The notes under the pieces were generated by a model. It was given only the letters and a program-made list of their open reading frames with translations, was not told the origin of the DNA and searched no databases. A program made the position numbers and the translations under genes. DNA of 64,000 bases from a virus. The DNA lies in the IMG/VR virus record IMGVR_UViG_3300042553_000685, one strand, 5' to 3'. Numbering within the stretch: the stretch's first letter is position 1; every line of letters begins with the position of its first letter. Shown in pieces: positions 5,879-41,461 of the stretch.

Positions 5879-5943
5879 ACCATTACCTCCTATATAACTG
5901 CTCCATACTGCCACACCTCTACAGCTTATTACTGAGCTCTTAG

Positions 5944-6113
5944 ATTCTTGATATTTGCTGGCGGTATTTTGGTCTATTATAAGGTATACCCCCTCCCCCA
6001 CCCTCCTGCTGGCGGTATTAAACTATATACGTATTAATACCTAGAGCTCCTAGATTCTGGATATTTGCTGGCGGTATTTTGGTGTATTATAGGGTATACC
6101 CCCTCCCCCACCC
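5944..6113. repeat. two ~70-bp direct repeats with 100-bp period in divergent intergenic region
   Basis: 5944-6003 and 6044-6113 are near-identical (gagctc[t/c]tagattct[t/g]gatatttgctggcggtattttggt[c/g]tattata[a/g]ggtataccccctcccccaccc); third partial copy tgctggcggtatt at 6007-6019. Confidence 0.85.
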
Positions 6114-6208
6114 AGGGGCTATCCATTTCAACTAATATAGGGATGCTCGATCCTCTTGGGTATTGGTATCACCTGCTTCAAGTAGATGGTGGTATGGCAT
6201 TAATAATA

Positions 6209-6260
6209 GGGCCTGCGGGCCCCTTTTTCCTTCTGGTGAATTTTAATCCTAGGAGGATAC
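6209..6260 (+). promoter_or_regulatory. terminator-promoter-RBS cassette copy 1
   Basis: GGGCCtgcgGGCCC hairpin, CTTTTTCCTTCTGGTGA, ATTTTAAT, CCTAGGAGG, ATG at 6261. Confidence 0.55.
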
Positions 6261-6599
6261 ATGATCTACAAACATTTGCCACGAGAATTTGACTACGCCT
6301 ACCGTGGTCATACTCACACCGACCTCGATTGGGGTCGGTGTGGCGAAGTTCTTTACGCCAGCCGCAGTCTGGCAGTGGCCAAGGACTTCGCTCGTGGAGG
6401 GCATGGGGCTGTGCTCATTCTCGCCTTCGACGGCGACGTCGAAGGCGACCGACCTTGGTGGTACGTAGAGGATGACCCCTCCTACTACGACGAAGTAGTC
6501 CTTCCGACCAGACTATGCGTCTGGTCTAAGTTAGTAATATTCGGCGGTGAGATCATCGCCGAACCAGTGATTAACTGGAACCCAGGTTATACCAAGTAA
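6261..6599 (+). CDS. early-block protein, possible small ADP-ribosyltransferase (112 aa)
   Basis: Own cassette and RBS; ordered YRG (6300-6308), LYASRSL (approx 6351-6371), YDEVVLP (approx 6486-6506) resemble R / S-x-S / E-V-V-L-P motifs of R-S-E ARTs. Confidence 0.6.
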   Translation: MIYKHLPREFDYAYRGHTHTDLDWGRCGEVLYASRSLAVAKDFARGGHGAVLILAFDGDVEGDRPWWYVEDDPSYYDEVVLPTRLCVWSKLVIFGGEIIAEPVINWNPGYTK

Positions 6600-6613
6600 C
6601 CTGGGGTAATTTA

Positions 6614-6669
6614 GGGAGTGTAATGCTCCCTTTTTCCTCGTAGTGAACCTTATCTCTAAGGAGGAGATT
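6614..6669 (+). promoter_or_regulatory. terminator-promoter-RBS cassette copy 2
   Basis: GGGAGtgtaatgCTCCC hairpin, TTTTTCCTCGTAGTGA, CTAAGGAGG, ATG at 6670. Confidence 0.5.
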
Positions 6670-7002: not shown

Positions 7003-7055
7003 GGGGCACAGTGCCCCCTTTTCTTCTAGTGATCTTTATACCCAAGGAGGGTATT
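7003..7055 (+). promoter_or_regulatory. terminator-promoter-RBS cassette copy 3
   Basis: GGGGCACaGTGCCCC hairpin, CTTTTCTTCTAGTGA, TCTTTATAC, CCAAGGAGG, ATG at 7056. Confidence 0.55.
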
Positions 7056-7190: not shown

Positions 7191-7197
7191 TAGTTAA

Positions 7198-7253
7198 GGG
7201 GCCTGGGTGAGGCCCCTTTTTCCTTCTAGTGATCTATAACCCTAGGAGGGATT
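7198..7253 (+). promoter_or_regulatory. terminator-promoter-RBS cassette copy 4
   Basis: GGGGCCtgggtgaGGCCCC hairpin, TTTTTCCTTCTAGTGA, TCTATAAC, CCTAGGAGG, ATG at 7254. Confidence 0.55.
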
Positions 7254-7388
7254 ATGAAATACACATTATCTTACATAGCAGCTATTGCGGTAATTCTTGG
7301 CACATGCGGTGCCATCATTGGTGGAGTATACCATGAGGCCTGTTATGGGCCTCTACCTACCTCACTATGTAAGGTAGACAAAGAGTAG
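7254..7388 (+). CDS. 44-aa single-pass membrane peptide (paralogue B)
   Basis: Hand translation MKYTLSYIAAIAVILGTCGAIIGGVYHEACYGPLPTSLCKVDKE; shares TC.AIIGGVY and C.VDKE with paralogue A. Confidence 0.6.
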   Translation: MKYTLSYIAAIAVILGTCGAIIGGVYHEACYGPLPTSLCKVDKE

Positions 7389-7395
7389 TAGTTAA

Positions 7396-7451
7396 GGGGC
7401 CTGGGCAGGCCCCTTTTTCCTTCTAGTAGTTTATAATCCTAGGAGTACATC
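7396..7451 (+). promoter_or_regulatory. terminator-promoter-RBS cassette copy 5
   Basis: GGGGCCtgggcaGGCCCC hairpin, TTTTTCCTTCTAGTAG, TTTATAAT, CCTAGGAG, ATG at 7452. Confidence 0.55.
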
Positions 7452-7967
7452 ATGAATGGTCTACAAATGGAGAAAGTAGTGTTGCGTGTGATTGAAGAAT
7501 TAGGTTTTAAATGTCCCAAGCCCCGTGAGGTATGGGGGGAGGGTTACTTGTATAACGCCGCCCATGAGCTCGCGAATAAGCATCTAGAGCTCAACTCCCG
7601 AGGCGGTGTCCTTCGTCGTCTCGTCCCCACTGATGATTGGGGAGTCCTAGACCGGGTATACAAGGTGGACGTAATAGTCCGCCAGTATACTGGGGAATTA
7701 TGGGCTCTTCAGCTTACTACCGATGCCGAGGCGGTATATAAGAAGCTGGGCCAGCTTTATAGTACCGATAGTCTTCGTCTGGCTGTTGGCATCGCCAAGA
7801 CCTGCTTGGTGGAGATTAAACCCCCTCAGCCTACCTGGGAGGGGCTCGGCCTGACTAGCCGGGTGGACCGGGATCAAGTAGAGGAGTGCCTCTATGAAAT
7901 GTTCGAGACAGTAGAAAAGAGTGACAAGCTCTTTCACTACCAGCTAGACCTAAGCTGGTTAAAGTAA
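7452..7967 (+). CDS. hypothetical early-block protein (171 aa)
   Basis: ORF track; preceded by cassette copy 5; no motif recognised. Confidence 0.6.
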   Translation: MNGLQMEKVVLRVIEELGFKCPKPREVWGEGYLYNAAHELANKHLELNSRGGVLRRLVPTDDWGVLDRVYKVDVIVRQYTGELWALQLTTDAEAVYKKLGQLYSTDSLRLAVGIAKTCLVEIKPPQPTWEGLGLTSRVDRDQVEECLYEMFETVEKSDKLFHYQLDLSWLK

Positions 7968-8082: not shown

Positions 8083-8094
8083 AATTAATACTCA

Positions 8095-8149
8095 GGAGGG
8101 CCCACTCCCCTTTTCTTTCTAGTGAATATTTACTCTAGGAGGTAAATCC
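8095..8149 (+). promoter_or_regulatory. terminator-promoter-RBS cassette copy 6
   Basis: GGAGggcccaCTCC, CCTTTTCTTTCTAGTGA, ATATTTACT, CTAGGAGG, ATG at 8150. Confidence 0.5.
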
Positions 8150-8299
8150 ATGTCCCCTTATCACACTTATCTTCAATTAAATCATCAAACGATTCAACTC
8201 CGGTCCGTAGATGGGCCAGCATGTCATCTAGACCTGGATGGTCACCGCTGGTATGTTCTACCAGATGGTGACTTCGAGATCATCACTCTAATAGACTAA
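8150..8299 (+). CDS. 49-aa hypothetical protein
   Basis: Hand translation MSPYHTYLQLNHQTIQLRSVDGPACHLDLDGHRWYVLPDGDFEIITLID; strong RBS; a truncated copy lies at 9133-9252. Confidence 0.55.
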   Translation: MSPYHTYLQLNHQTIQLRSVDGPACHLDLDGHRWYVLPDGDFEIITLID

Positions 8300-8306
8300 C
8301 ACTATA

Positions 8307-8361
8307 GGGGGCTATATGCTCCCCTTTTTCCTTCTGGTGAATTTTAGTCCCAGGAGGACAC
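8307..8361 (+). promoter_or_regulatory. terminator-promoter-RBS cassette copy 7
   Basis: GGGGGCtatatGCTCCCC, TTTTTCCTTCTGGTGA, ATTTTAGT, CCCAGGAGG, ATG at 8362. Confidence 0.55.
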
Positions 8362-9120
8362 ATGTACAAAATCCTAGCAACGTCAATCTACGCCGCACTA
8401 CAGGCAGCAGGCATCTACGTCCACCCAACGACGTGGGCGTTCATCTCGTACTATTTCATGGGCGGTTCCCAACCCCCAACCCTCTCTGAGGCCGACATCG
8501 CTGAGACACGCGACGCGGTAATACGAAACCTCAAGGCTCGTCTTAAGGACGAAGAAATGAGCCGCCGCTCTCTAGTTACTTTCGTGGACATAAATATAGA
8601 AAACGGTTGGTGGTCTTCTTTAAAGGGGGCCATCGGTAACTTCAACTACCGCATTTTGGCGGTAGGTCCCGACACGATTAAGGTGGAGTGTCGTGACACG
8701 TGGGACTTCAATCCCAACTCCCATTACATAGAGCTACCCTGTTCGCCTCGTTTAGCGAGTGCAATATCTTCTCTGGCTAAGAAGGTAGGTATAGAGGTCT
8801 TCTACAATAAAAATAAAAGAGAGCTAATTTTCTGTGAAAAGGATCTGGTCAAGCTCAATCCTGGTCGCGCCTTCACGACCGTGTGGAAAGTAGAGGTCCC
8901 CACAGCGGAGGTAATTCCTGAGTGGGCTACTTACTGGGAGGTGGCTACCTGGAATGAAGGTAACTATGCCTTCATTCGGCCTCTCAAGTACGTACCCTTA
9001 CCCCTCTGCCGCTACCAGCGGGGTAATGGAGTTTATGTTGGACGGGACTACCATCCCGACATCGATTACGTGTCGATGTTAGAAGCAGGTTGGGCTCCCG
9101 CTGTAGATTTACCTGAATAA
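8362..9120 (+). CDS. hypothetical early-block protein (252 aa)
   Basis: ORF track; cassette copy 7 upstream; flanked by the 49-aa gene and its truncated duplicate. Confidence 0.6.
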   Translation: MYKILATSIYAALQAAGIYVHPTTWAFISYYFMGGSQPPTLSEADIAETRDAVIRNLKARLKDEEMSRRSLVTFVDINIENGWWSSLKGAIGNFNYRILAVGPDTIKVECRDTWDFNPNSHYIELPCSPRLASAISSLAKKVGIEVFYNKNKRELIFCEKDLVKLNPGRAFTTVWKVEVPTAEVIPEWATYWEVATWNEGNYAFIRPLKYVPLPLCRYQRGNGVYVGRDYHPDIDYVSMLEAGWAPAVDLPE

Positions 9121-9366: not shown

Positions 9367-9419
9367 GCCAGCAATTGGCCCCTTTTCTTTTAGTAGTCCT
9401 ATACACCCAAGTATACACA
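9367..9419 (+). promoter_or_regulatory. cassette copy 8 (degenerate, no SD)
   Basis: GCCAgcaaTTGGC, CCCTTTTCTTTTAGTAG, then 25 nt to ATG at 9420. Confidence 0.4.
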
Positions 9420-10157
9420 ATGAGAAACAACAACAACAACGACAACCAGGCCTCTAATCAAGCCTCTAACCAAGCCTCTAACTCCAAAAGCTACGTATTT
9501 ACCCTTAACGTAAGTCGCACTGCCAGCACTAAGTCTGGCGTTCTTGCTTACGTGCACAATGGTGCTATCAAGCGCCGCCTGGATGGGTCTAGCTACTGGC
9601 TGGAGTTCCGGCTGATATCCATTAAGAACGGGGAGGTACCTCTCACTACCTCCGATGGTCGTAGTTTATGTACGTCCGAGTTTGTAAAGCTTCTCTCTGG
9701 AGACGCTAGCGATGACGTGATAATGTCTGTAGAGTTATCTACAGATTTCGAAGACGGGTGGGATAGCTCGTGGGGATGTGTAAAAGTTAGCTTCAACGCA
9801 GAAGACCTCCGCGTTGGGCGCGAAACAGAGTACAAGGGCACAATAACCCAGTACCTTCACCTTGAAGGTGCGGAAATCCAACTTCATCGGGAAGTTGTCC
9901 GTCCGAAAATAGACCCGTCTATACTAGATGGGTTTGAAAGTATCGCAAAGCCTAACGTAGTAACTGCGGAACAGTTACATAGTAAAGCGGCCGCCCGCAA
10001 ACGCAAACGGGAGGCTGCTAAGGCTGCACGAGATGCTGCAGCAATAGTATCTAAGCCAGGTACTGTTGTTGAGTCAGTAGTAGCGTCTAATGATACTGAT
10101 ACTGATTGGGAAGTGCCGGCTGCCCTATCCGTCGACATCGACTATATACTTGACTAA
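9420..10157 (+). CDS. hypothetical protein with N-terminal Asn/Gln-Ala-Ser repeats and basic-then-acidic C-terminus (245 aa)
   Basis: Start set at ATG 9420 just after cassette; MRNNNNNDNQASNQASNQASN; C-terminal ARKRKREAAKAARDAAA then acidic tail. Confidence 0.6.
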   Translation: MRNNNNNDNQASNQASNQASNSKSYVFTLNVSRTASTKSGVLAYVHNGAIKRRLDGSSYWLEFRLISIKNGEVPLTTSDGRSLCTSEFVKLLSGDASDDVIMSVELSTDFEDGWDSSWGCVKVSFNAEDLRVGRETEYKGTITQYLHLEGAEIQLHREVVRPKIDPSILDGFESIAKPNVVTAEQLHSKAAARKRKREAAKAARDAAAIVSKPGTVVESVVASNDTDTDWEVPAALSVDIDYILD

Positions 10158-10162
10158 TAAAA

Positions 10163-10215
10163 GGGGCCCTGCTTGGGCCCCTTTTTCCTTTAGTGGCTAT
10201 ATATTACCACTAACC
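10163..10215 (+). promoter_or_regulatory. cassette copy 9
   Basis: GGGGCCCtgcttGGGCCCC hairpin, TTTTTCCTTTAGTGG, CTATATATT, ATG at 10216. Confidence 0.5.
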
Positions 10216-13200
10216 ATGAATACCATCAACTCTATCGTCTTCCAATCCAATGTTCTCGTAGCCTCTATCGGCGCCGTTATCGCAAACACTCGTGTTACTA
10301 CACGACGTGTAGGCCCTGGTCGCCGTGCTCAGCAGATAGCAAGCCGCCGCGCTAATCGCGTAGTACGCCGTCGCTCTCGTCGTATTGCGTCGGCTGGTCG
10401 TCCTATCCGCTCCTTACCTCAAAGCCAACGCCCCTGCGTTGTAAAATCGGCACGACGTACGCTACGTCGTGCCGCAGCTGCCACAGTCTTAGCCGCTCGC
10501 AAACCCGTGTTACGTAACCGTAACGTCGTAGACAAACTTATCTTACGACAACGTAAGGCCAAACCTATAATGCGCGCTGTCAGCGCAGTATTTGCGCGTC
10601 CCTCGCGTCCTACTAACACCGGCACCGGCACTAAAGCCGTTGCTACCGTAGTTAATAATGCTGCTGGTAGTATTATCGCTGCCCTCGACCAAGGGCGCCT
10701 AAACTATCGTGGCAACGGCCGCACATGTGTGGGCAAGAAGTACAAAACTAAAAACGCTAAAGCCGTTTTAGCGATAGCTAAAGCTGCTAAAGCTACTGAT
10801 AAAGCAGCACGCGTTAAACGCTGTATGAGCGTTGTAGTACCAGAATTACCAAGTGATGTACTGGCTTGCCGCATGAGAGTCGTAGGCAAACTATGCGGTG
10901 TGACCTTTGTACAAGGGGACATAGCGTCTTATTGTGACAATGTCGTTACTATACCTTCATTCGAAGATATATACGCGATAACTCACGAGCTTGTCCACCA
11001 CTGCCAAGCTCTAGGTCTTACTGAAGACCTAGATATAGCTCTGGTGTCTGAGGCCGCTATTGGCGCGGGCTCGGCTCAATGGCATGACACTAAATCGTTC
11101 TACGAAGGTACTGAGCATGAGAATGATGAATACGAAGCAGCTCTGCTTATGTACGACCCGGCGTTAGTGGCCCGCCTCTTATGCACTCACTACCTCATGA
11201 CCGCGTTTGTAGAAAGCGGGGCACCTGGTCCTGATGATACATGGATGGATGTGGTAGATAGTTTAGATCCTGCGATTTGTCGTGAAGTCGTAGGTCTCGA
11301 TGATCGCGTACTCGATTATAAAACCTATGGCGAATATGCTGAAGCCGTTGGATATGATGACACTAATACGTTATTAGACTGGGAATTTGTCTTTAACAAT
11401 AGTGTCAACAACGATAATGCTGTTGCGCTAACCATTCAAGCAATTGATGGTCTTATTGGTGCGGCGCCCGCAGCAGTAACTCCTACCCACCCGCTCTCTA
11501 ACATAGGAGCCCCTACTAAGGGGTTAGAGAGTGATAGCTCCTCTAACAATACCACCAACACTAGCACTACCATGAAGAGCATTATCGAGATGTTAATTCC
11601 TGACCCTAGTACTCTCGGTGGAGCCGTGTCTCCTAAGCAGGAGGCGCGCATTACGGGAGCTCGTAAAGAGTTAACCCGCTTGTTTGGGGCTAATAACTTC
11701 GACCTTCTGCCTGAAGGTCCGATTCTCTATGTCGTATCTGGTTACAACCGTATGTGTAAGAAGTTCCTTGCGCTTCTAGACCATCGGGTTGTTTACACCA
11801 CGGATTCTAAAATGAATCCTAAGGTCATTAACTTAGGTGTAACTAAGTCTATTCCCTATGAAGACGACAAGCATACCTATACTACTAAGACCGAATGCTT
11901 AGTTAGCATGTATAGTGAGCACTTCCTCACTAAATTAGCCACGTGGTCTGGTGATGACCTGGCCGCTCTTGTAGGCTGCCTGTGTATTAAACAACACCGT
12001 ATTGTTAGTGTTGAGGGCCCCTGTGTTGTCATCAAGGGTAATAACCGTAACACTACTTTCAACTTTAGTACAGGTACCGTCAATGACGGCCGTCAGAGTC
12101 GCATCGCTAATGAGCTAGTTAAAGTAGGAGGCAAAGACTACAGTGGTCGTGTAGCCCTTGTAGCGCTCTGTATGAAGGTAGTGTATAACGCTACTGGTGC
12201 GCGTGCTATCCTCAATGAGGTAACTAACCTATGGCGCGAGGACATCAACTACGGCGCTCAGCCTAAAGAGGGTCAATCTCTATTTGAGATTAATCGCTGT
12301 ATGTCCCGTCCTGTTGTTTTCAAGCCTTGGGATAAGGCCTTCCCGTTCCTGCAAGTGGAGAACGTTGGCCTCGCACCCAGCGATCTTGAATTGTCGCTCA
12401 AAGCCGGTGTCATAGCAGCACCTGATAAATACAATTCAAAATGGATCGCTGTAGGTAAGGGTGCCAAGGCCATGTTCCTCGGACTTAAGGATAGTAAGAT
12501 ATACTCCATCCATGACTTCAGCAAGCCCACTAAGGTATACAACCGTCCACCTAGCTCGGGTAAATACACCCGTGCTGAGGTGGTAGGTCGTCATGATAGC
12601 CTACTTCGCGTTGATTTAGGTGATGGTAGCTATAGTTGTGGTGGTGGCCTCTATCTACGCACCGCATTCACCAATAGCCGCTTTGGCTTTGGCAGTGGTG
12701 TTGCTGCTATACGCCGCGACCTTGAGTTCGAATACACCGTACCGAAGACCATTACTAAGGAGTTTCACGTACTCCGTATTCCTAGCGAAGTCCGCGCTCT
12801 TATGGCTGCTGATCTAGATGACCCTATGAGTAAACTCATGGAAGTCATCGAAGGCAAAATAGAGAAGGCAAAGGGGCAGGTCTATGCTCCTGGTAACCCT
12901 ATCATTAGCATTATGCGGGGCAAGTACTGCATAGTGAAGAACGAGACATTCGCGCAGGACATCCGCGTAATAGGCGGGACTGTCACGCGTAATGGCGTCG
13001 AGGGCCGCGCTGATAGCGTCACTATTCGACTTGAGACTGAGATGGTAGGGCGCGACCAAGCCCTCAAACTCCGCGGTCTAGGTAAGAAGCTTACCACTCT
13101 TCCCTATGACGTTGAGGGACTATCTCAACCCTGGGATATCATCCTAAATAACGAGACCACCAAGGGATGGCCCGCGCTCATAGAGATGTTCGCCATTGAG

Positions 13201-15297
13201 AAGAGAGGCTGCACCTATACTCCTGAGGGTGCGCTTCTCACCATCGATGCTACTGGTGAAGTTATTGATCTTATGACTAAGAGTAATACCTTTACTGAGT
13301 GGGCTCGAGCCAACAGTGTTAAAGAGGTCATCTCTTTTAATATGGCCCGCGACCTGTGGGATTCCATCTCCTCCGTAGTAACTAACGATGACATCAAGGT
13401 AATCGACATCGACGATACCAGCGTCCGTATCGAAGAAACAGTAGAGGTTATATACGGCTATCTGCCGTATGATATCGAGATAGCCACTCCTCGTGAGTCC
13501 GTAGCATTCTCCAAAATGACTATGGAACAGGTGGGTATTGTGGCTCTACAGAACCGCTCTTGGGGCGAAGCACTCATGGAGGAGGTTAAGTACGATAACG
13601 TCATGTCCATAGTTAGTATGATCACGTCTAAAAACTGTGCTGCTCACATTAACATCAGCACTACTGAGGGGCGTGACCATCTACGGAACATTATCGGCGT
13701 AGTTAACAACTACGTTTCTGATAGCACCCCCGGCAGTGACCGCAAACTGCTAGAGCGTTTTGCTACCATCTATCCAGATGGAGTGGATATCGTTGCCCAG
13801 AATAACGGTAATGAGGTCTCTCTTCATATCAATGGTAAGGCCCTAAGCGCGTTCGGTACCTTCTCTGGCGCCTCCGCTACTGGTATTATGCTAGACCTCT
13901 TGACACTGTTGGCCTACGTTACTGATGTAGGAATTGAAGACCAAAGCGGTTTGGATAGTAAAATCTACTCCATGACCGCTAAGGTCAGCCGCGGTTTACG
14001 CACATGGTGTAACACCATGGTTAAATCCAAAAGCATTCTGAAAAGTATGGCCCGCGCTGGCGATGTGGTCGTTGGTAAGGTCAAGACCAGCTATAGCCCC
14101 TTGCTCCATAGCTCTGATGGCGTGCCTGTAATTCTCATGCACCCCGATTGCCCTATGGTGCGTATGCTTGGCATCGAAGAAGGTCAGGTTATTGGGATAC
14201 AACGGACTCCTATGGGCTTCGTCCTATGCGGCCGCGTTAAGTTCTCTGCTACTGATGCCTTTATCGCACACTACACAATCAACCCTCTCCTATGGCACGC
14301 CGTTAACGAAGGCGATGCTGATGGTGACCAGTGCGGCGGCATTAATGCTCACAAGTATAGCATCGATGCTGAGAGTGCCCTCACTATCAATGCTAGTCTC
14401 ATGGGCATGGGCGGCTACTTCTACTGCTACGAAGCAGATGACCTGCCGTTCTTCGCCTTCATGAGTTATGAAGATAAGATGGGCAAGAAATCCCTCACTA
14501 AGTGGGATAAGCCTGTAGCTACTGCTATCGCTGTTGATAAGTATGTAAGCGATGCTGCTGAAGTGCACACGCATTATAAAGTAGCCGTAGGTGTCGGCTA
14601 CGGCATCTGCTCCGCACTTGCCTTCCAGACCTGGGATAGTATGTACCGCGCTAGCGGCGTCGATACCGACGCACTTAAAGCATGTGTTATCGCTTGGCGT
14701 TTCGTTTATGAAAGCATGGGTCTCGGGGGCTATACCCCTGAGGCTAAGATCTTCATGGCTACCTTAGTGCAAGCAGCTCGCGCCTGGGCTGCTGGCGTAT
14801 CTATGTATAAGTCGTTGCAAGACGGGTTATACTACTCTGCCAACTCCACTAAGCTTGCGGATACGGATCGCCAGGGAGGTAGTGTACCTCCTGCTCGGGT
14901 TATGGCTAACCTTATGCCTGCTAAACTAGCTAAGGAGCCCGCGGTAATCTACCATCTTATAAAGGCCCGCGCCCGTACTCTCACATACGGCGCTCTCGAA
15001 CGGGGCAACTTCGCTCGCAAGAGCCTTATCATGTCATCTGCCATATACGGAGCCTTCCGTCGTACTGGCCAGGGTCATGATCCTGTGGTTCCTATGACTC
15101 AGGATGACGCGGCCAGTTATGGCGCTGATGATATCGTCCCCGTTAGTGTGTTCGACATGGTAAGTGAGTTCCAACTCTCTAACTATGTCAAGAACCCTCA
15201 ACTCAAGCAGCTGTTGGAAATCGCAACTGCTGTACATCTCGATCTCGGTGACTACAAACTAGAACTCGCTGAAGCTGAAGATCATCCTGATTTCTAA
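10216..15297 (+). CDS. giant protein (1,693 aa): candidate single-polypeptide two-barrel (beta/beta-prime-like) RNA polymerase with Arg-rich N-terminus
   Basis: Uninterrupted 5-kb ORF. LKLRGLGKKLTTLPYDVEGLSQPWDIILNNE (13064-13155) resembles the beta motif K..GRHGNKG..MPYDENGTPVDIVLNP. QRTPMGF...INPLLWHAVNEGDADGDQCGGINAH (14200-14350) resembles beta-prime NRAPTLH...[20 protein letters not shown]. HELVH lies at 10984-10998. The first ~130 aa are extremely R/A-rich. Start moved to the ATG at 10216 after the cassette. Confidence 0.6.
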   Translation: MNTINSIVFQSNVLVASIGAVIANTRVTTRRVGPGRRAQQIASRRANRVVRRRSRRIASAGRPIRSLPQSQRPCVVKSARRTLRRAAAATVLAARKPVLRNRNVVDKLILRQRKAKPIMRAVSAVFARPSRPTNTGTGTKAVATVVNNAAGSIIAALDQGRLNYRGNGRTCVGKKYKTKNAKAVLAIAKAAKATDKAARVKRCMSVVVPELPSDVLACRMRVVGKLCGVTFVQGDIASYCDNVVTIPSFEDIYAITHELVHHCQALGLTEDLDIALVSEAAIGAGSAQWHDTKSFYEGTEHENDEYEAALLMYDPALVARLLCTHYLMTAFVESGAPGPDDTWMDVVDSLDPAICREVVGLDDRVLDYKTYGEYAEAVGYDDTNTLLDWEFVFNNSVNNDNAVALTIQAIDGLIGAAPAAVTPTHPLSNIGAPTKGLESDSSSNNTTNTSTTMKSIIEMLIPDPSTLGGAVSPKQEARITGARKELTRLFGANNFDLLPEGPILYVVSGYNRMCKKFLALLDHRVVYTTDSKMNPKVINLGVTKSIPYEDDKHTYTTKTECLVSMYSEHFLTKLATWSGDDLAALVGCLCIKQHRIVSVEGPCVVIKGNNRNTTFNFSTGTVNDGRQSRIANELVKVGGKDYSGRVALVALCMKVVYNATGARAILNEVTNLWREDINYGAQPKEGQSLFEINRCMSRPVVFKPWDKAFPFLQVENVGLAPSDLELSLKAGVIAAPDKYNSKWIAVGKGAKAMFLGLKDSKIYSIHDFSKPTKVYNRPPSSGKYTRAEVVGRHDSLLRVDLGDGSYSCGGGLYLRTAFTNSRFGFGSGVAAIRRDLEFEYTVPKTITKEFHVLRIPSEVRALMAADLDDPMSKLMEVIEGKIEKAKGQVYAPGNPIISIMRGKYCIVKNETFAQDIRVIGGTVTRNGVEGRADSVTIRLETEMVGRDQALKLRGLGKKLTTLPYDVEGLSQPWDIILNNETTKGWPALIEMFAIEKRGCTYTPEGALLTIDATGEVIDLMTKSNTFTEWARANSVKEVISFNMARDLWDSISSVVTNDDIKVIDIDDTSVRIEETVEVIYGYLPYDIEIATPRESVAFSKMTMEQVGIVALQNRSWGEALMEEVKYDNVMSIVSMITSKNCAAHINISTTEGRDHLRNIIGVVNNYVSDSTPGSDRKLLERFATIYPDGVDIVAQNNGNEVSLHINGKALSAFGTFSGASATGIMLDLLTLLAYVTDVGIEDQSGLDSKIYSMTAKVSRGLRTWCNTMVKSKSILKSMARAGDVVVGKVKTSYSPLLHSSDGVPVILMHPDCPMVRMLGIEEGQVIGIQRTPMGFVLCGRVKFSATDAFIAHYTINPLLWHAVNEGDADGDQCGGINAHKYSIDAESALTINASLMGMGGYFYCYEADDLPFFAFMSYEDKMGKKSLTKWDKPVATAIAVDKYVSDAAEVHTHYKVAVGVGYGICSALAFQTWDSMYRASGVDTDALKACVIAWRFVYESMGLGGYTPEAKIFMATLVQAARAWAAGVSMYKSLQDGLYYSANSTKLADTDRQGGSVPPARVMANLMPAKLAKEPAVIYHLIKARARTLTYGALERGNFARKSLIMSSAIYGAFRRTGQGHDPVVPMTQDDAASYGADDIVPVSVFDMVSEFQLSNYVKNPQLKQLLEIATAVHLDLGDYKLELAEAEDHPDF

Positions 15298-15304
15298 TTA
15301 CAAT

Positions 15305-15370
15305 GGGGTCATATGACCCCTGGGGCCACCTGGCCCCTTTTTCTTTTAGTGGAGCTCTTTACTCCATATG
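15305..15370 (+). promoter_or_regulatory. cassette copy 10, not followed by a protein gene
   Basis: Tandem hairpins GGGGTCatatGACCCC and GGGGCCacctGGCCCC, then TTTTTCTTTTAGTGG; only a 9-codon ORF follows. Confidence 0.5.
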
Positions 15371-15798
15371 ATAGGTAGTATCTGGTATTGCCCATGACAG
15401 CGAATGTTACTAGCGGCGGCTTATGCTCGTGACGGCGAATTCTATTAGCGGTGGCAATAAACTATCTGTTGGGTACTCCCTAAGCACCCAGCAAGAGCTG
15501 CGTTAGTTTCATTAGCCACTCCCTTTCAGAAGAGCTATTGTCGCGATAGCTACCATAGCTATATTAGCCACTCCCCAACGGAGGAGCTTATGGTACTCGA
15601 GCTGCGAAAGTAGCCAGTGCCACTCCCCAACAGAGGGGCTTGTGTCGCACTAGTCGTGATAACTACTATAGCTGCACTAGCTGCTCTAGCCACTCCGTTG
15701 GGGAGGGCCTATGGTACTCGAGCTGCGAAAGTAGTCGATACCACTCCCCAACGGAGGGATATAACCTCTAATTACTCATTATTACCTATTAGCTAGCC
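15371..15798 (+). repeat. non-coding hairpin-repeat region (candidate structured RNA or iteron origin)
   Basis: Five CCACTCC-N5-GGAGG-type modules start at 15516, 15568, 15620, 15690 and 15741. A 25-nt repeat tatggtactcgagctgcgaaagtag occurs at 15589 and 15710, each holding a GCUGC-GAAA-GUAGC hairpin. A 26-nt repeat occurs at 15395 and 15430. No ORF. Confidence 0.7.
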
Positions 15799-16574: not shown

Positions 16575-17585
16575 ATGAACGCTACACCACACACAATAAT
16601 ATCTAGACAGGGCGTCGAACAAAATAGAAGACAGTTTAAAGAACAACCCTTCGGGGAAGATTTGGGCAACGACATAACCTTAGAAATGGTTGCTATCCCA
16701 GGGGGAACTTTCCTGATGGGTTCATCGCCAAATGAGAAATATAGTTTTGATGATGAACACCCTCAACATCAAGTAAGTGTCCCACCCTTTTTCATGGGTA
16801 AATACCCCATCACTCAGGCTCAGTGGAAAGAGGTTGCCTCTCGCACAGATTTAAAAGTTGAAAGAGACCTTGATCTCAACCCAGCCTATTTTAAAGACCG
16901 TCCCGATAGTGATCGCCGCCCCGTAGAACAAGTCAACTGGTACGATGCCGTTGAATTTTGTGCGAGATTATCGATACTGACGGGAAGGGAATACCGACTA
17001 CCGAGTGAAGCGGAATGGGAATACGCTTGTCGTGCTGGAACTACTACCCCATTCTACTTTGGGGAAACCATTACAGGGGAATTGGCTAACTATGACGCCA
17101 GCGAAACAACTCCCGTGGGACAATTTACACCCAATGCCTTCGGACTGTACGATATGCACGGCAATGTCTGGGAATGGTGTGCTGATACTTGGCATGATAA
17201 CTATGACGGTGCGCCTAGTGACGGTAGTGTTTGGCTTGATAATAATCAAGAGGAAAATATTGATGGAAAGAGCAGATTCGGCACATATTCTGTCATGCGG
17301 GGCGGTTCTTGGTGCATACATCCGTCTTACTGCCGTTCCGCTTCCCGCAGCAGCCGCGATCGCCGCGACTACTTCAACCTCTACGGTTTTCGGGTAGTCT
17401 GCGTCGACCTTGATCGCGAGGGTGCTGATTCCCCTCGATTTTGGGATAAAGCTGATCGCTTGATGGTGGTGACGGTAGGAGGTGCAGCCCTAGGTGGATC
17501 GATTGCGGGAGTTTACGGTGCGGTTATTGGTGCGATATTAGCGGCGGGCTGCGGATGGTATATTACCTTTAGGAAAGCAAAATGA
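16575..17585 (+). CDS. FGE/SUMF1 (formylglycine-generating-enzyme, C-type-lectin-fold) domain protein with C-terminal Gly-zipper TM segment (336 aa)
   Basis: GGTFLMGS, HQVSVPPFFMGKYPITQAQW, PVEQVNWYDAVEFC, YRLPSEAEWEYACRAGT, FGLYDMHGNVWEWC, RGGSW, CRSA, GFRVV; tail GGAALGGSIAGVYGAVIGAILAAGCGW. Confidence 0.9.
   Translation: MNATPHTIISRQGVEQNRRQFKEQPFGEDLGNDITLEMVAIPGGTFLMGSSPNEKYSFDDEHPQHQVSVPPFFMGKYPITQAQWKEVASRTDLKVERDLDLNPAYFKDRPDSDRRPVEQVNWYDAVEFCARLSILTGREYRLPSEAEWEYACRAGTTTPFYFGETITGELANYDASETTPVGQFTPNAFGLYDMHGNVWEWCADTWHDNYDGAPSDGSVWLDNNQEENIDGKSRFGTYSVMRGGSWCIHPSYCRSASRSSRDRRDYFNLYGFRVVCVDLDREGADSPRFWDKADRLMVVTVGGAALGGSIAGVYGAVIGAILAAGCGWYITFRKAK
17295..17402 (+). other. DGR-variable-region-like 3' segment of FGE gene 1
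   Basis: RGGSW-CIHPSY-CRSA-S-R-SSRD-RR-DYFNLY-GFRVVC: conserved scaffold codons alternate with codons that differ among the three paralogues. Confidence 0.5.
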
Positions 17586-24333: not shown

Positions 24334-24724
24334 GTTAGAGCAAAACCCACAACGTCATATAAGTTAAACCTATGAGTCACTATCAAAGTACCATTCCACC
24401 CTCTGGGGCAAACCTATTAACTATTGATTGCACTCTATGCTGGCGTTACTTAGTATAGAGTATAATATTGTATATCGATAAGTTATACTTATCAATTAAC
24501 CACAGCTTCTCTCACCTCAGATAGATATGCCCATAACATACAGTTATAATATATAACAATTCAAACATAAATAATTGGGGTTTTTAATACAGCGTTGTAA
24601 ATACGGCAAATATCGCCATATTTAGCTATATTTAAACAAATATTAAGCTATCAAATGCGAGCGAAACCTAGGCAGAGAGATAGACAAGAGTGAGTAGCCA
24701 CTCAATTATTAAGGAGATATAGGC

Positions 24725-24886
24725 ATGTCAAAAACAGTATTAGCTTTATATGTGACCCTTACCGTGTTCATAGTGATTCTAATGTATATAATGATATCAA
24801 TCATATCTGCTGGAGGGCCCGCCAGCGATACATGTAGTAGAGTGTGTAGCCACTCAATTATTAAGGATATACAAGCATGTCAATAA
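24725..24886 (+). CDS. 53-aa membrane peptide (tandem paralogue 1)
   Basis: Hand translation MSKTVLALYVTLTVFIVILMYIMISIISAGGPASDTCSRV...; AAGGAG RBS; upstream leader gtagccactcaattattaagga duplicated at 24845. Confidence 0.45.
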   Translation: MSKTVLALYVTLTVFIVILMYIMISIISAGGPASDTCSRVCSHSIIKDIQACQ

Positions 24887-25089
24887 CAGTAATAGCGTTA
24901 AATGTAGTCTTTATCGTATACATAGTGTTCCTGATGTATCTAATTCCTAGAGTAGGGCCCCGCGCTAGGTGGGGCCTTGTCGCGTTAATATGCGTCATAG
25001 CGTTGGTATGGATATCGATCATGTCTAATGGAGGGCCCGCCAGTGATACATGTAGTAGAGTGTTCCACTTCTCTATATCTAGGCTATAA
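24877..25089 (+). CDS. 70-aa membrane protein (tandem paralogue 2)
   Basis: ORF track; shares leader, N-terminus MS.T.. and GGPASDTCSRV with paralogue 1. Confidence 0.5.
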   Translation: MSITVIALNVVFIVYIVFLMYLIPRVGPRARWGLVALICVIALVWISIMSNGGPASDTCSRVFHFSISRL

Positions 25090-25447: not shown

Positions 25448-25520
25448 GCAGGATTGGCCGATAGGTGGAGGCACCGTCCTCATAAGACGGCTTAGAGCGG
25501 TTCGATTCCGCTATCCTGCA
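25448..25520 (+). tRNA. tRNA-Met (anticodon CAT; could alternatively be a lysidine-type tRNA-Ile2)
   Basis: Hand-folded cloverleaf. Acceptor GCAGGAT/ATCCTGC is perfect; D arm is GCCG..AGGC; anticodon stem is CCGTC/GACGG with loop CTCATAA; T arm is AGCGG-TTCGATT-CCGCT; discriminator A; no encoded CCA. Confidence 0.85.
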
Positions 25521-32089: not shown

Positions 32090-33136
32090 ATGACTTCTAT
32101 TAATTTTTACGAAAGAACGGCGCTTATCAAGCGTATCGAAAACAATCTCAATAAAATTAACCAAAGATATTTTGACAAAAGCCACGTGATATTATCAGTG
32201 ACTGATAACGGTGATTACCTCACTGTTAAAAAACAAGGTGTTTACTTAGCAGATTATGACACTCAAAAGCTTTTTGACGCTCTAGAAAATTTTATTGAAG
32301 AAGTTCGGGAGCTTCTTAGTTTTCCTTACGACCTATGGGACTATTTAGATTATTGCAGGTACACGCCAGAAGATCAAAACTCTGACAACTTAAGCAAATT
32401 AGTTGAGGAACTAGAAACAAAAAATGAAATTCTGGAGAAAAAAAATCAAGAATTAGAACAGAGCAAAGAATACAACGAAGCATGGATTGACAACTTAAAA
32501 CAAAAGGTTCACGATTTAGAATCCTCAGTTTGGCTACTGCAACAGGAAAATAAGCGACTAAAAAATCAATCAGAGTTAGGAGTAAAAATGACAATTACAA
32601 TGGTAAAGATACCAGCAAGTCAAGAAATTAAAAGTTTTAGAATTGGCAAATATCCAGTGACTCAGGAACAGTATCAGGCGGTAATGGGAGTTAATCCTTC
32701 CCATTTTCAAGGCAATCCTCAGAATCCAGTGGAAAGTGTTAGTTATGATGATGCTCAAGCTTTTTGTGAAAAACTAAGTCAGATAACAGGGAAAAATTAT
32801 CGCTTACCCACAGTATCAGAATGGGAGTATGCCTGTCGAGCAGGTACAGTTACTGGGTATTATTTCGGAGATGATTATCATCAGTTAAGAGATTACGCTT
32901 GGTATTTTGATAATTCTCAGGGAACAACCCATCCTGTAGGATTAAAGCTACCCAATGCCTGGGGACTGTACGATATGCACGGTAACGTCTGGGAATGGTG
33001 TCAAAAGGATTTTCATCTGCGGGGCGGTTCCTGGGGCAGCCTTTCTACTTTCTGCCGTTCCGCGTTTCGCTACAGCAGCCTTCGCCGCGACGACCGCACC
33101 GTCGTTAGCGGTTTTCGGGTAGTCTGTGACAATTAG
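32090..33136 (+). CDS. coiled-coil + FGE/SUMF1-domain protein (348 aa)
   Basis: N-terminal heptad-rich region (ELETKNEILEKKNQELEQSKE); C-terminal GKYPVTQEQYQAVMG, PVESVSYDDAQAFC, YRLPTVSEWEYACRAGT, WGLYDMHGNVWEWC, RGGSW, CRSA, GFRVVC. Confidence 0.9.
   Translation: MTSINFYERTALIKRIENNLNKINQRYFDKSHVILSVTDNGDYLTVKKQGVYLADYDTQKLFDALENFIEEVRELLSFPYDLWDYLDYCRYTPEDQNSDNLSKLVEELETKNEILEKKNQELEQSKEYNEAWIDNLKQKVHDLESSVWLLQQENKRLKNQSELGVKMTITMVKIPASQEIKSFRIGKYPVTQEQYQAVMGVNPSHFQGNPQNPVESVSYDDAQAFCEKLSQITGKNYRLPTVSEWEYACRAGTVTGYYFGDDYHQLRDYAWYFDNSQGTTHPVGLKLPNAWGLYDMHGNVWEWCQKDFHLRGGSWGSLSTFCRSAFRYSSLRRDDRTVVSGFRVVCDN
33017..33128 (+). other. DGR-variable-region-like 3' segment of FGE gene 2
   Basis: RGGSW-GSLSTF-CRSA-F-R-YSSL-RR-DDRTVVS-GFRVVC; I count only about 10 adenines in ~110 nt in an otherwise A/T-rich gene. 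Confidence 0.55.
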
Positions 33137-34839: not shown

Positions 34840-35491
34840 ATGAACATTAAACCGCAACTTAAAAGCAGTATTCGGCTATTTTTAGAAGGTTCAGAAGATG
34901 GGCTCCAGCGCCTAGTATATTTACGTCAATCGGGGGAATTGCAGGACCTTCTCAATGAACTTAAACCAGACGATATACCCGAAATTGTTGTCACAAAAGC
35001 AGAGTTCACTACAGATGCAAAAGTTAAAGTCGAGTTCACTACAGATGCAAAAGATTGAAAAAGCTGAATTAATTAAGGCAATTCGAGAAGGAACAATCGA
35101 TAAGACAACTCTACAACAAGTTGATTTAAGTGGGGCTGACCTGATTAAGGTTGACCTGATTAAGGCTGATCTGAGTGGGGCGGACCTGAGAGAAGCTAAA
35201 CTGAGTGAAGCTATCCTGAGTGAAGCTGACTTGAGTGAAGCTGACCTGATTAAGGCTATCCTGAGTGATGCTATCCTGAATGATGCTATCTTGAGTTGGG
35301 CTGATCTGAGTTGGGCTATCCTAAGTGGGGCTGACTTGAATGCAGCTATTCTGATTGAGGCTAACCTAAAAGGGGCTGACCTGAGTAAAGCTAACCTGAG
35401 AGGGGCTGACATTGAAGACGCTATCTTTATCAATGCAACGGGGATCACCCCTGAACAAGAACAGGATTTAATTCGACAAGGAGTAGATTAA
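34840..35491 (+). pseudogene. frameshifted paralogue of the pentapeptide-repeat gene at 56991..57947
   Basis: 34840..35058 encodes the shared N-domain (SIRLFLEGSEDG.Q.L..L.QSGELQ.LLNELK). 34955..35491, in another frame, encodes IEKAELIKAIREGTIDKTTLQQV plus A(D/N)LxG repeats. Relative to the paralogue there is a 30-bp tandem duplication (35002-35061) and a 2-nt deficit before the TGA at 35056. Confidence 0.65.
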
Positions 35492-40093: not shown

Positions 40094-40577
40094 GACTGTA
40101 TTGGCGCTGCCCGCCATTAGACAAGATAGAACAGCGTTACCCTTTGTCTTCCCAGAGTTATCCCTCTATACTCTCCTGAGTATAGAAGATGTCATTCCTG
40201 ACATCACTATTAACGTAGTGGCTACTAGTCCGTGGGCCCAGGGCACACACTATGGCACTATGTATTGGACTGTTCTAGTAGTGCGTTATCAGAACAGTCC
40301 CTTCTTAGTAGTGGGCCGTCGTTACGTGACAGATGGGCTTAACCCTAACGAAACGGCCCTCCGCTACGTAATAGACCAGGACCTCTATCGTACGGCTATC
40401 AACTACGCACTACAGCAGGAGACAGAGGAGGTAGTCTTTACTAATAAGGAGCGGCCCCTCGATAAAGAGAAGGCCCAGGCCTTTCATCGCATCGGGAGTG
40501 AGATACGCTTTATAGAGGCTGATGCCCTCAGCTGCACTATTGGGGACATCAATACATTACTTGATATATTATTATGA
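40086..40577 (+). CDS. hypothetical protein (163 aa, TTG start)
   Basis: ORF track; overlaps both neighbours by a few nt. Confidence 0.5.
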   Translation: MLETVLALPAIRQDRTALPFVFPELSLYTLLSIEDVIPDITINVVATSPWAQGTHYGTMYWTVLVVRYQNSPFLVVGRRYVTDGLNPNETALRYVIDQDLYRTAINYALQQETEEVVFTNKERPLDKEKAQAFHRIGSEIRFIEADALSCTIGDINTLLDILL

Positions 40578-41461
40578 AACATTTAGTTAATCCAGATTCA
40601 GTTAAACCGTTGCAAAAGTTAGAATTGTTATCATTTAACTTTGAGGTGGTGCAAGTAAATGAGAAGGGTGAGCAAATTAACAAAGAGTCAAAGCAGTCCC
40701 AATATTTCAGCCAAGATTTAGACAACGACATCACCTTAGAAATGGTTGCCATCCCAGAGGGAACTTTCCTGATGGGTTCACCACAAGACGAAAAAGATAG
40801 TTACGATGATGAACGTCCTCAACATGAGGTTAACGTCCCCACCTTTTTCATGGGCAAGTATCCCATCACCCAAACACAGTGGAGAGCGATTGCCGCAACC
40901 GCTAAAATAGACATCGACCTAGAGACAAACCCTTCTGAATTCAAAGGGGATGAGCTACCCGTAGAAAGTGTCAACTGGTATCAAGCAACGGAATTTTGTA
41001 AACGACTATCAAGAGAAACAAAACGGGAGTATCGACTACCGAGTGAGGCGGAATGGGAGTACGCTTGTCGTGCTGGAACCACCACCCCATTTTACTTTGG
41101 GGAAACCATTACGGGGGAATTGGCTAACTACAATACTAACAAAACCTACGTCGAGGAATATCGAAACGAAACAACTCCCGTGGGACAATTTCCCCCAAAC
41201 GCTTTTGGACTGTACGATATGTACGGCAATGTCTGGGAATGGTGCGCCGATACTTGGCACGATAACTATGACGGGGCGCCGACGGATGGCAGTGCTTGGA
41301 TAGAAAATGGGGATGATAATCGTTCTCCTCTGCGGGGCGGGGCTTGGTACACCTTTCCGTATCGCTGCCGTTCTGCTCACCGCAACATCGACGCCCGCCG
41401 CTACAGCCGCAGCTTCCTTTACGGTTTTCGGGTGGTGTGCAGTGCTGAAAGGACTCTGTAG
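40574..41461 (+). CDS. FGE/SUMF1-domain protein (295 aa), close paralogue of 16575..17585
   Basis: DNDITLEMVAIPEGTFLMGS, HEVNVPTFFMGKYPITQTQW, YRLPSEAEWEYACRAGTTTPFYFGETITGELANY, FGLYDMYGNVWEWCADTWHDNYDGAP, RGGAW, CRSA, GFRVVC; ATGA overlap with upstream backbone gene. Confidence 0.9.
   Translation: MKHLVNPDSVKPLQKLELLSFNFEVVQVNEKGEQINKESKQSQYFSQDLDNDITLEMVAIPEGTFLMGSPQDEKDSYDDERPQHEVNVPTFFMGKYPITQTQWRAIAATAKIDIDLETNPSEFKGDELPVESVNWYQATEFCKRLSRETKREYRLPSEAEWEYACRAGTTTPFYFGETITGELANYNTNKTYVEEYRNETTPVGQFPPNAFGLYDMYGNVWEWCADTWHDNYDGAPTDGSAWIENGDDNRSPLRGGAWYTFPYRCRSAHRNIDARRYSRSFLYGFRVVCSAERTL
41329..41440 (+). other. DGR-variable-region-like 3' segment of FGE gene 3
   Basis: RGGAW-YTFPYR-CRSA-H-R-NIDA-RR-YSRSFLY-GFRVVC; diverges from gene 1 only at the interleaved codons while flanking DNA is roughly 90% identical by eye. 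Confidence 0.5.

Follow-up and report, generated by a model that had tools for sequence, protein, structure and literature searches.

A gene of 5,082 nucleotides (nt), located on the plus strand of a 64,000-nt stretch of viral DNA (IMG/VR record IMGVR_UViG_3300042553_000685; the whole stretch is called the window below), very probably encodes a two-barrel RNA polymerase (RNAP) in which beta-like and beta'-like parts are fused in a single polypeptide. The window derives from a Ma-LMM01-like Microcystis myophage of the genus Fukuivirus. Such an enzyme had been proposed in a preliminary description of this DNA, and the proposal was supported by motifs that are invariant in a family of 156 clusters, by confident structural models with their Foldseek matches, and by matches in BFVD. 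The polymerase is most likely DNA-dependent. The gene and its relatives probably form a previously unrecognised RNAP family, with giant N-terminally extended members, permuted members and members interrupted by LAGLIDADG elements.

The open reading frame (ORF) as delimited mechanically runs from 10090 to 15297 (1,735 amino acids, aa), or 1,693 aa if counted from the ATG at 10216. This ATG is a credible start because the preceding ORF stops at 10157, because a GC hairpin with a T-run occupies positions 10161-10190, and because nine homologues (86-97% identical) align from that methionine; the ORF and the start codon initially described were both confirmed. The gene showed 88-91% nucleotide identity to all 9 Fukuivirus GenBank records, in each of which the product is called a hypothetical protein. 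The counterpart in Ma-LMM01 is gp064 (YP_851078), which is located directly upstream of a repeat array and the gp063-gp054 block.

The protein had been described as having no obvious family. In agreement, searches of Pfam, PHROG and PDB sequences gave no named family: no Pfam match was obtained for the whole protein at E <= 1, the only PHROG match was phrog_30979 (function unknown), and phmmer against all PDB chain sequences gave noise only. A word-indexed search with the single sequence returned only relatives more than 86% identical. Residues 494-1693 were then used in an exhaustive HMMER search of 1.84 billion cluster representatives, which detected 156 relatives (representatives at 50% clustering; 116 at E < 1e-10 and 68 at E < 1e-30), none of them named. 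Most were 1,200-1,700 aa long, with a few giants of approximately 3,000 aa (2,900-3,400 aa). Judged from these sequences, the family would be widespread in uncultured phages, with more than 150 clusters at 50% identity. Outside Fukuivirus, cultured phages yielded a single relative, a protein of 3,410 aa from Microcoleus phage My-WqHQDG with 25% identity across residues 1220-1502. It shares the motifs GI(G/Q)RTP and N(N/E)GD(T/A)DGD with the window protein, in the form GIGRTP and NNGDTDGD, and is also colinear with it in the basic N-terminus, the HExxH motif and the middle region. When three family members were compared by tblastn with 50,697 phage records, only Fukuivirus and one Microcoleus phage were matched. 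Two motif patterns matched no relative among 185,579 reference genomes of bacteria and archaea, and there is therefore no evidence of prophage copies in them. A scan of IMG/VR yielded 18 close and 2 distant loci, for which the PHROG annotation of the neighbouring genes was uninformative.

The assignment began with two short segments of the protein that resemble the conserved motifs of cellular RNAPs. All of the peptides quoted in the preliminary description were present, with coordinates correct to within one nucleotide: LKLRGLGKK...ILNNE corresponds to residues 950-980 (nt 13063-13155, one nucleotide from the position first given), and QRTPMGF...GDADGDQCGGINAH to residues 1329-1378 (nt 14200-14349). 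The distance between the motifs, put at about 400 aa, is 409 aa from K958 to D1367. The conservation of these residues was assessed in the local iterated profile and, independently, in a MAFFT alignment of 73 members whose identity to the query was 18-40%, and the invariant positions agreed between the two. K951, K958 and K983 were 100% invariant (114-115 representatives; R953 85%, E980 90% and G984 89%), and were likewise invariant in the independent MAFFT alignment A2. R1330 and P1332 were 100% invariant (120/120 representatives), as were D1367, D1369, G1370 and D1371 (107-111 representatives, and also in alignments A2 and A3). Conservation of 100% in the profile thus falls on the lysine pair in the first segment and on R-x-P and DxDGD in the second. 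The complete set of family-wide invariants comprised G811, G828, K951, K958, K983, E1088, R1330, P1332, D1367, D1369, G1370, D1371, H1453, Y1454, E1499, L1503 and G1505, and R1615 and G1620 (15058-15075) were also conserved at approximately 100%. Loss of the motifs in homologues would have spoken against a polymerase; the motif residues were 100% invariant across approximately 107-121 distant representatives.

Eight residues are invariant in all two-barrel RNAPs according to Ruprich-Robert and Thuriaux, namely three Asp, one Arg, one Pro, two basic residues and one acidic residue (PMC2919709). These are exemplified by R446/P448 in Rpb1, by K979/K987 and D837 in Rpb2, and by R738/K743 and D709 in Qde1 (PMC2919709). 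Seven of the eight have clear counterparts in the window protein: the two basic residues, R-x-P and the three Asp. E1088 is a candidate for the eighth residue of the catalytic site, at a non-canonical position in the sequence. The local sequence at the Asp triad is NEGDADGDQ, compared with NADFDGDQ in beta', and the distance from the Arg to the first Asp is 37 aa, compared with 35 aa in Escherichia coli beta'. The two lysines are 7 residues apart (8 in Rpb2/beta and 5 in Qde1). In a six-frame translation of the window D.DGD occurred twice, and the composite pattern R.P-(25-45 aa)-D.DGD occurred once in the six frames of 64 kb, in the giant ORF.

Structural models were obtained with AlphaFold2 for residues 494-1693 (me662b98bc094; alignment of 73 sequences) and for residues 1133-1693 (m8d96947d4060). 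The former had a mean predicted local distance difference test score (pLDDT) of 90.4 and a predicted template-modelling (TM) score of 0.90, with pLDDT values mostly above 90 from residue ~563 onward; the pLDDT of the latter was 91.9. When the 494-1693 model was compared with the PDB by Foldseek, ranks 1 to 27 were all second-largest RNAP subunits (E from 5e-3, probability 0.8-1.0), including Pol I A135, Pol III C128, archaeal B, plastid beta, and the vaccinia and African swine fever virus (ASFV) subunits; designed double-psi beta-barrels (DPBBs) were also matched. The 1133-1693 model matched Pol IV NRPD1 (8xmc_A, 2.3e-4), the beta'-N subunit of the non-virion RNAP (nvRNAP) of phage AR9 (7s00_d, 4.3e-4, probability 1.0), the phiKZ nvRNAP (8que_A, 2.5e-3) and P23-45 gp96 (8h2m, 3.8e-3), as well as ASFV, human Pol I and E. 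coli beta' (4mey_D, 6ri9_D), together with dozens of generic DPBB domains (p97-N, FwdD, designed DPBBs) at probability 1.0. DPBB-bearing matches were therefore found for both modelled modules, as the preliminary description would require. The matches were of beta type for the N-terminal part and of beta' type for the C-terminal part, so the order in the chain is beta, then beta'. R1330 and P1332 lie at the end of a strand in the model, and DxDGD lies in a loop between the helix 1357-1364 and the strand 1372-1376; this placement of the R-x-P strand, and of the DxDGD loop between a short helix and a strand, is the arrangement of beta'. Barrel 2 is followed by a helix of 36 residues (1440-1475) that carries the invariant H1453 and Y1454.

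A Foldseek search of BFVD with the 494-1693 model matched the MaMV-DC orthologue, fragments of giant marine-virus proteins, LEF-9 and LEF-8, and RNAP subunits of entomopoxviruses and giant viruses; a crAss-like phage protein fragment was matched at approximately 1e-2. The best non-self matches were A0A172Q0S6 of Acinetobacter phage vB_AbaM_ME3, an uncharacterised protein of 798 aa (2.7e-6), and A0A8S5SD80_1 of uncultured Siphoviridae sp. ctnpt50, a 'minor tail protein' (8.9e-5). Neither is annotated as a polymerase. On the strength of the model comparison, both may be further unrecognised two-barrel RNAPs, and A0A8S5SD80_1 may be fused to a tail protein, as in P23-45.

Several results weigh against a two-barrel RNAP. 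No Pfam match was obtained for the protein or for five distant relatives, and hence no RNA_pol_Rpb1_* or RNA_pol_Rpb2_* domain; the 73-sequence family profile gave no match among PDB sequences, which included 8h2m (gp96); and a second profile search, of 5.8 billion proteins, yielded no relative with a Pfam domain or a name. The sequence-profile link to RpoB and RpoC that had been suggested as a check was not obtained, as hhalign of the family profiles against E. coli beta and beta' reached a probability of only 0.3, with irrelevant matches of 20-30 residues. No conserved Asp or Glu was present in residues 844-951, where the acid upstream of the lysine pair (Rpb2 D837) is expected, and the only invariant acid of the beta-like module, E1088, is downstream of that pair. 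The structural scores were modest (best Foldseek/PDB E-value 2e-4, TM-scores 0.1-0.2). In addition, sigma70-like promoter motifs have been reported upstream of all three temporal classes of Ma-LMM01 genes, without shut-off of the host (PMC5780444), so that a phage RNAP is not required by the existing transcriptome data. As the sequence-profile tests against known RNAPs failed, the assignment is made at the level of the superfamily, to a new family. The modest E-values and low TM-scores are as expected for large multidomain proteins that share little beyond the core, and the case for an RNAP fold rests on the consistency of the match lists together with the motifs.

The lack of recognition of any polymerase family by sequence-profile methods might indicate that the protein is a structural or otherwise non-catalytic giant, with a coincidental likeness to RNAP motifs. 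This is extremely unlikely, as the motif residues are the very positions that are 100% invariant in a family diverging to 18-25% identity, two separate confident models gave beta-like and beta'-like match lists in the correct order, and the composite motif occurred a single time in the six frames. A different objection is that the two-barrel core, DxDxD and the basic residues are also present in RNA-dependent RNA polymerases (RdRPs) and in PolD (PMC2919709; PMC7824862), and that the eighth conserved residue is away from its canonical position here; the protein could then be a QDE-1-like RdRP, a maker of replication primers or a PolD-like DNA polymerase. We regard such a non-transcribing polymerase as improbable. 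The best structural matches were subunits of DNA-dependent RNAPs, the templates of Pol IV NRPD1 and of the phage nvRNAPs being DNA, and chains of QDE-1, RDR2 and PolD DP2 were absent from the top 50 of both PDB searches; RNA-templated activity is not indicated. Moreover, N-E-G-D-x-D-G-D-Q closely resembles the transcriptase signature NADFDGDQ, and DNA polymerase I and other replication proteins are already encoded by Ma-LMM01 (PMC5780444).

The models and alignments show the fold, the sequence of modules along the chain and the invariance of the residues at the catalytic site. That the protein is catalytic, which template and promoters it uses, when it acts and what its peptidase does are inferred. 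In the scheme proposed for a fused two-barrel RNAP, the first DPBB, in the beta-like module (residues ~560-1132), would supply the invariant K951, K958 and K983, and the second, in the beta'-like module (1133-1693), would bear the R1330-x-P1332 strand and the D1367-x-D1369-G-D1371 loop. As in cellular RNAP, the catalytic Mg2+ would be bound by the three Asp where the two barrels meet, and the lysines would contact the nucleoside triphosphate and the 3' end of the RNA. The core would work without alpha or omega subunits.

The two-barrel, beta-then-beta' order is shared with the core of multisubunit RNAPs (beta/beta', Rpb2/Rpb1, and the nvRNAPs of AR9 and phiKZ), as are the R-x-P...(35-37 aa)...N-x-x-D-x-D-G-D-Q pattern in barrel 2 and a lysine pair with a third basic residue in barrel 1. 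Multisubunit enzymes also provided the best Foldseek matches of the window protein (A135, C128 and archaeal B for one model; NRPD1, 7s00_d, 8que_A and E. coli beta' for the other). They differ from it in having 2-5 subunits, whereas the window protein is one polypeptide without alpha or omega, and no similarity to them was detectable by hidden Markov model (HMM) searches or HHalign. The window protein also lacks a conserved acid at the position of beta E813/D814, and its Lys-Lys distance is 7 rather than 8.

Both barrels are likewise contained in one chain in the single-subunit phage RNAPs, namely SPbeta YonO, gp66 (the virion RNAP of the crAss-like phage phi14:2), and gp96 and gp64 (the latter an nvRNAP) of Thermus phage P23-45. 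The sequences of these enzymes and of the window protein are extremely divergent except around DxDxD, and some are giant, with extra domains. P23-45 gp96, a virion RNAP (vRNAP) fused to the tail tape, also bears a metallopeptidase domain (PMC10770324), and its link to the window protein is structural only. No connection of the YonO, gp66, gp96 and gp64 families to the window family was obtained by tblastn or HMM, a comparison made without a profile-profile test against YonO and gp66. On this comparison, the window family is separate from the YonO, gp66 and P23-45 families. The structural match lists of the window protein are led by multisubunit-type subunits and not by QDE-1 or gp66. Compared with the single-subunit phage RNAPs, the cyanobacterial host group and the myovirus context are new, and circularly permuted and insertion-interrupted members are included. 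QDE-1 and the eukaryotic RNA interference RdRPs share the two-barrel core of the superfamily and its invariant residues (PMC2919709). The vRNAP of coliphage N4 might be a functional analogue, as a giant phage RNAP with non-polymerase regions at both the N- and C-terminus, whereas its fold, that of a T7-like right-hand polymerase, is unrelated to that of the window protein.

Many relatives end inside DxDGD (C-termini '...NEGK' and '...NEGDSDGRPA'), and approximately 15 short proteins begin just after it. Altogether, approximately 25 family proteins have a C- or N-terminus at the DxDGD cut, at two or more cut positions (after NEG and after GDxDG). Behind the truncated gene, a LAGLIDADG endonuclease ORF was found in two independent cases (loci L003:10140-11002 and L030:5170-5855; relatives P0014 and P0021), with Pfam LAGLIDADG_2 at 3.8e-10 and 2.8e-3 for the two insertion ORFs. 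This looks like invasion of catalytic-site codons by homing endonucleases or introns in these relatives. Selfish elements of the LAGLIDADG type characteristically home into essential, conserved catalytic sites, and given this habit, insertion exactly at the DxDGD codons was counted in favour of a catalytic site. No Rfam group I or group II intron model was matched beside the interrupted genes, where the contigs end inside the insertion. Eight relatives are circularly permuted (P0084, P0103, P0111, P0127, P0129, P0108, P0140 and P0147): in these, the C-terminal helical domain (equivalent of 1373-1681) comes before barrel 2 (equivalent of 1140-1377), and the protein ends in ...GDGDGDP. Misassembly is an unlikely source of the permutation, because the P0084 cluster occurs in JGI, ENA, Logan and NCBI assemblies.

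Ma-LMM01 has been proposed to run its three temporal classes on host RNAP with SigA-like promoters (PMC5780444), and MaMV-DH01 was stated explicitly to have no RNA polymerase of its own (PMC9927357). In the Ma-LMM01 transcriptome, gp064 belongs to the middle subclass B5 together with replication genes, with values of approximately 0, 1.6, 7.5 and 8.0 in the four columns of the table; in the second column the adjoining early gene gp063 has already reached 7.9. At 1 h, when expression of the neighbouring early cluster is already high, gp064 is nearly without reads. Small unidirectional ORFs surround the gene in five loci (the window, L003, L004, L031 and L032), with no recognised Pfam or PHROG domain of a structural gene nearby. 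From the middle class and the gene context, we lean towards a non-virion transcriptase expressed in the middle phase. In the working model, the enzyme would be made in the middle phase and would transcribe a subset of the phage genes independently of host RNAP. Given that the protein is an RNAP, a non-virion role has slightly better than an even chance, and a virion role a smaller though substantial one.

The same two-barrel RNAP might instead be a virion protein, packaged in the capsid, that enters the cell together with the DNA and transcribes the early cluster next to its gene (equivalents of gp054-gp063, from 15.8 kb onward); this is possible, if on the doubtful side. The N4 vRNAP, the crAss-like gp66 and P23-45 gp96 would be its models, with packaging, ejection or processing as the tasks of the basic N-terminus and the zincin. 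Its large size and N-terminal extension fit such a role, and relatives of 2,900-3,400 aa with the same layout of basic segment, zincin and polymerase recall the giant injected RNAPs; the extension is, however, absent from most family members, which are 1,200-1,400 aa long. The BFVD matches include the 'minor tail protein' (E 8.9e-5), giant viral protein fragments and the crAss-like phage protein, and P23-45 gp96, a tail-tape-fused vRNAP, is among the PDB matches (PMC10770324), whereas around the gene itself only small ORFs of unknown function were present in the five loci, with no recognised capsid or tail domains. The gene is directly upstream of the early cluster, with an unusual array of ~52-nt repeats between them, and since its orthologue is barely transcribed at 1 h, newly made enzyme cannot explain early transcription. 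The early promoters have, on the other hand, been described as SigA-like, and the Ma-LMM01 orthologue clusters with the middle replication genes and not with the late head and sheath genes (PMC5780444). Taken furthest, this idea would have the enzyme enter along with the DNA and start the early cluster by reading the repeat-rich region beside its own gene.

The N-terminal extension precedes the polymerase core, from which it is separated by a low-complexity linker. The preliminary description had called its first part Arg/Ala-rich, in agreement with the 28 Arg and 18 Ala among the 117 residues from 19 to 135 (net charge +32). A similar basic segment (ASRRANRV..RRR) is present in Microcoleus phage My-WqHQDG and in P0127, P0107 and P0114. 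Most family members begin near the equivalent of residues ~440-560 (HMM positions), just past the linker, and the extension is therefore lineage-specific; it is common to P0127, P0043 and the ~3,000-aa proteins. The HELVH motif (residues 257-261) had been described as zincin-like. This reading was supported in part: I..HELxH...E, including a Glu ~40-45 residues downstream (E302), was invariant in 7 relatives with long N-termini, and two of these proteins reached the Pfam Peptidase_M78 (IrrE/ImmA) gathering score of 22 (P0117, 24.5 bits; My-WqHQDG, 22.1 bits), with sub-threshold matches for P0127 (E 0.021) and P0114 (E 0.075). The window's own copy gave no Pfam match to Peptidase_M78. In the PDB profile search the best match of the module, the minigluzincin MJ1213, was not significant (E = 0.34). 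From its conserved sequence pattern the HELVH module is likely a minimal zincin. ImmA/IrrE (Peptidase_M78) and the minigluzincins show the same [hydrophobic strand]-x-I-x...-HELxH-(~40 aa)-E pattern as the N-terminal module. The basic segment could bind nucleic acid, and a zincin of the ImmA/IrrE (M78) or minigluzincin type could process its own protein or cleave a host or phage regulator. To our knowledge, fusion of a peptidase of the M78 or minigluzincin type to an RNAP has not been described.

Terminator-like hairpins flank the giant gene on both sides (10161-10190 and 15322-15337). The unit immediately upstream (10161-10215) is a variant of a terminator-promoter-like cassette that recurs at 6.2-9.4 kb (repeat families D6, D16 and D17). 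The cassette is dispersed between genes, 5' of successive plus-strand genes, and consists of a GC hairpin, CCCCTTTTTCCTT, CTAGTGA, a TATAAT-like element of 8-10 nt, CCTAGGAGG and ATG. From its sequence it reads as a compact terminator-promoter-ribosome binding site unit. Plus-strand terminator-like sites were enriched at 6-16 kb (22 found, 7.4 expected). In a scan for the sigma70 consensus, promoter-like sites were not enriched at 6-16 kb (8 found, 12.1 expected), and none lay 5' of the giant gene. Five TAGCCACTCCCCAACGGAGG units of ~52 nt, each with TAGCCACTCCCCAACGGAGGRGCT, plus inverted copies, are present at 15491-15760, in the interval that separates the polymerase gene from the start of the gene block expressed early in Ma-LMM01. 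Their counterpart in Ma-LMM01 is an array annotated as '42 bp repeat'. Together with the cassette, these five units are the obvious candidate templates for studies of promoter specificity. The positions of all features are given in the table below.

Table. Features of the putative polymerase gene and its flanks; positions refer to the 64,000-nt window.
Feature	Residues	Position (nt)	Strand	Remarks
Whole gene, putative single-polypeptide two-barrel RNA polymerase	1,693 aa + stop	10216..15297	+	Orthologue of Ma-LMM01 gp064
Upstream unit		10161..10215	+	GC hairpin with T-run (10161-10190), then TTTAGTGGCTATATATTACCACTAACC immediately 5' of ATG; GGAGG absent
Strongly basic Arg/Ala-rich segment	19-135	10270..10620	+	
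Likely minimal zincin (HExxH...E) module	~205-330	10828..11205	+	HELVH 10984-10998; candidate third ligand E302 11119-11121
Low-complexity Ser/Thr/Asn-rich linker	~415-452	11458..11571	+	Between N-terminal extension and polymerase core; read from translation
Beta-like (second-largest-subunit-like) module, predicted	~560-1132	11893..13611	+	Contains first double-psi beta-barrel
Barrel 1 basic active-site motif, predicted	L950-K951-L-R953-G-L-G-K958 ... E980-T-T-K983-G984	13063..13164	+	
Invariant acidic residue	E1088	13477..13479	+	Sole one of beta-like module; 121/121 representatives
Beta'-like (largest-subunit-like) module, predicted	1133-1693	13612..15294	+	Second double-psi beta-barrel, then helical C-terminal domain
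R-x-P motif	R1330-T-P1332	14203..14211	+	Counterpart of beta' N-R425-A-P427
Predicted Mg2+-binding triad	D1367-A-D1369-G1370-D1371	14314..14328	+	Counterpart of beta' D460-F-D462-G-D464
Invariant C-terminal-domain residues	H1453-Y1454, W1494-R-x-x-Y1498-E1499...L1503-G-G1505	14572..14730	+	
Terminator-like hairpin and following element		15322..15352	+	GGGGCCACCTGGCCCC + T-run (15322-15337), then TTTAGTGG; 25 nt past stop codon; repeat family D16
Cassette copies		6209-6270, 6613-6652, 7003-7038, 7196-7263, 7393-7460, 8094-8156, 8306-8371, 9367-9402, 10161-10215, 15322-15352	+	

In the literature searches, no paper was found that connects two-barrel or DPBB polymerases with Ma-LMM01, Microcystis phages or cyanophages, which is consistent with the earlier remark that no such enzyme had been described for a cyanophage. 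The single co-occurrence of these terms concerned jelly-roll capsids. A comparison of 23 two-barrel families (Chaban et al. 2024) does not mention the window family in its text or in the part of its supplements that was available. For Microcystis aeruginosa, which forms blooms and produces toxins, the reference phage is Ma-LMM01. The infection programme of this phage has been read on the premise that it has no RNAP of its own and must therefore manage early, middle and late expression with an unaltered host RNAP (PMC5780444). If the assignment is correct, a phage group thought to depend wholly on the transcription machinery of the host carries its own polymerase, which would be a concrete candidate for temporal control without host shut-off. 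A large unannotated family would also join the short list of single-chain two-barrel RNAPs (YonO, crAss gp66, P23-45 gp96 and gp64), enzymes that inform ideas on the minimal catalytic core and on the early evolution of transcription. The permuted, insertion-split and peptidase-fused members would be natural experiments on the tolerance of this core to rearrangement, and a compact polymerase of ~1,100 residues with its own promoter could serve as a tool in cyanobacteria.

Other features were observed in the window and in related loci. Linkage of the polymerase gene to a kinase was considered and rejected, as small Pkinase-like ORFs were found near the gene in two distant relatives, with no homologue in the window; these two ORFs (L003:2923-3549 and L031:9295-9864) are homologous to each other (37% identity, E 1e-18). 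Three paralogous FGE-sulfatase-domain genes are present at 16575-17585 (Pfam 9e-56), 32090-33136 and 40574-41461, with repeated DNA segments in common. Ma-LMM01 gp062 matches the FGE-sulfatase ORFs of the window, and its annotation as a 'kinase' therefore appears to be wrong. Tandem arrays with a period of 15 nt (up to 43 copies) are present at 35134-35399 and 57211-57854, inside the ORFs 34955-35491 and 56991-57947; this period corresponds to a five-residue (pentapeptide-type) repeat, and the two ORFs also share flanking sequence. A 110-nt tandem duplication is located at 5934-6139, and direct repeats of ~100 nt are located at 24687-25063, upstream of a tRNA-Met gene (25448-25520).

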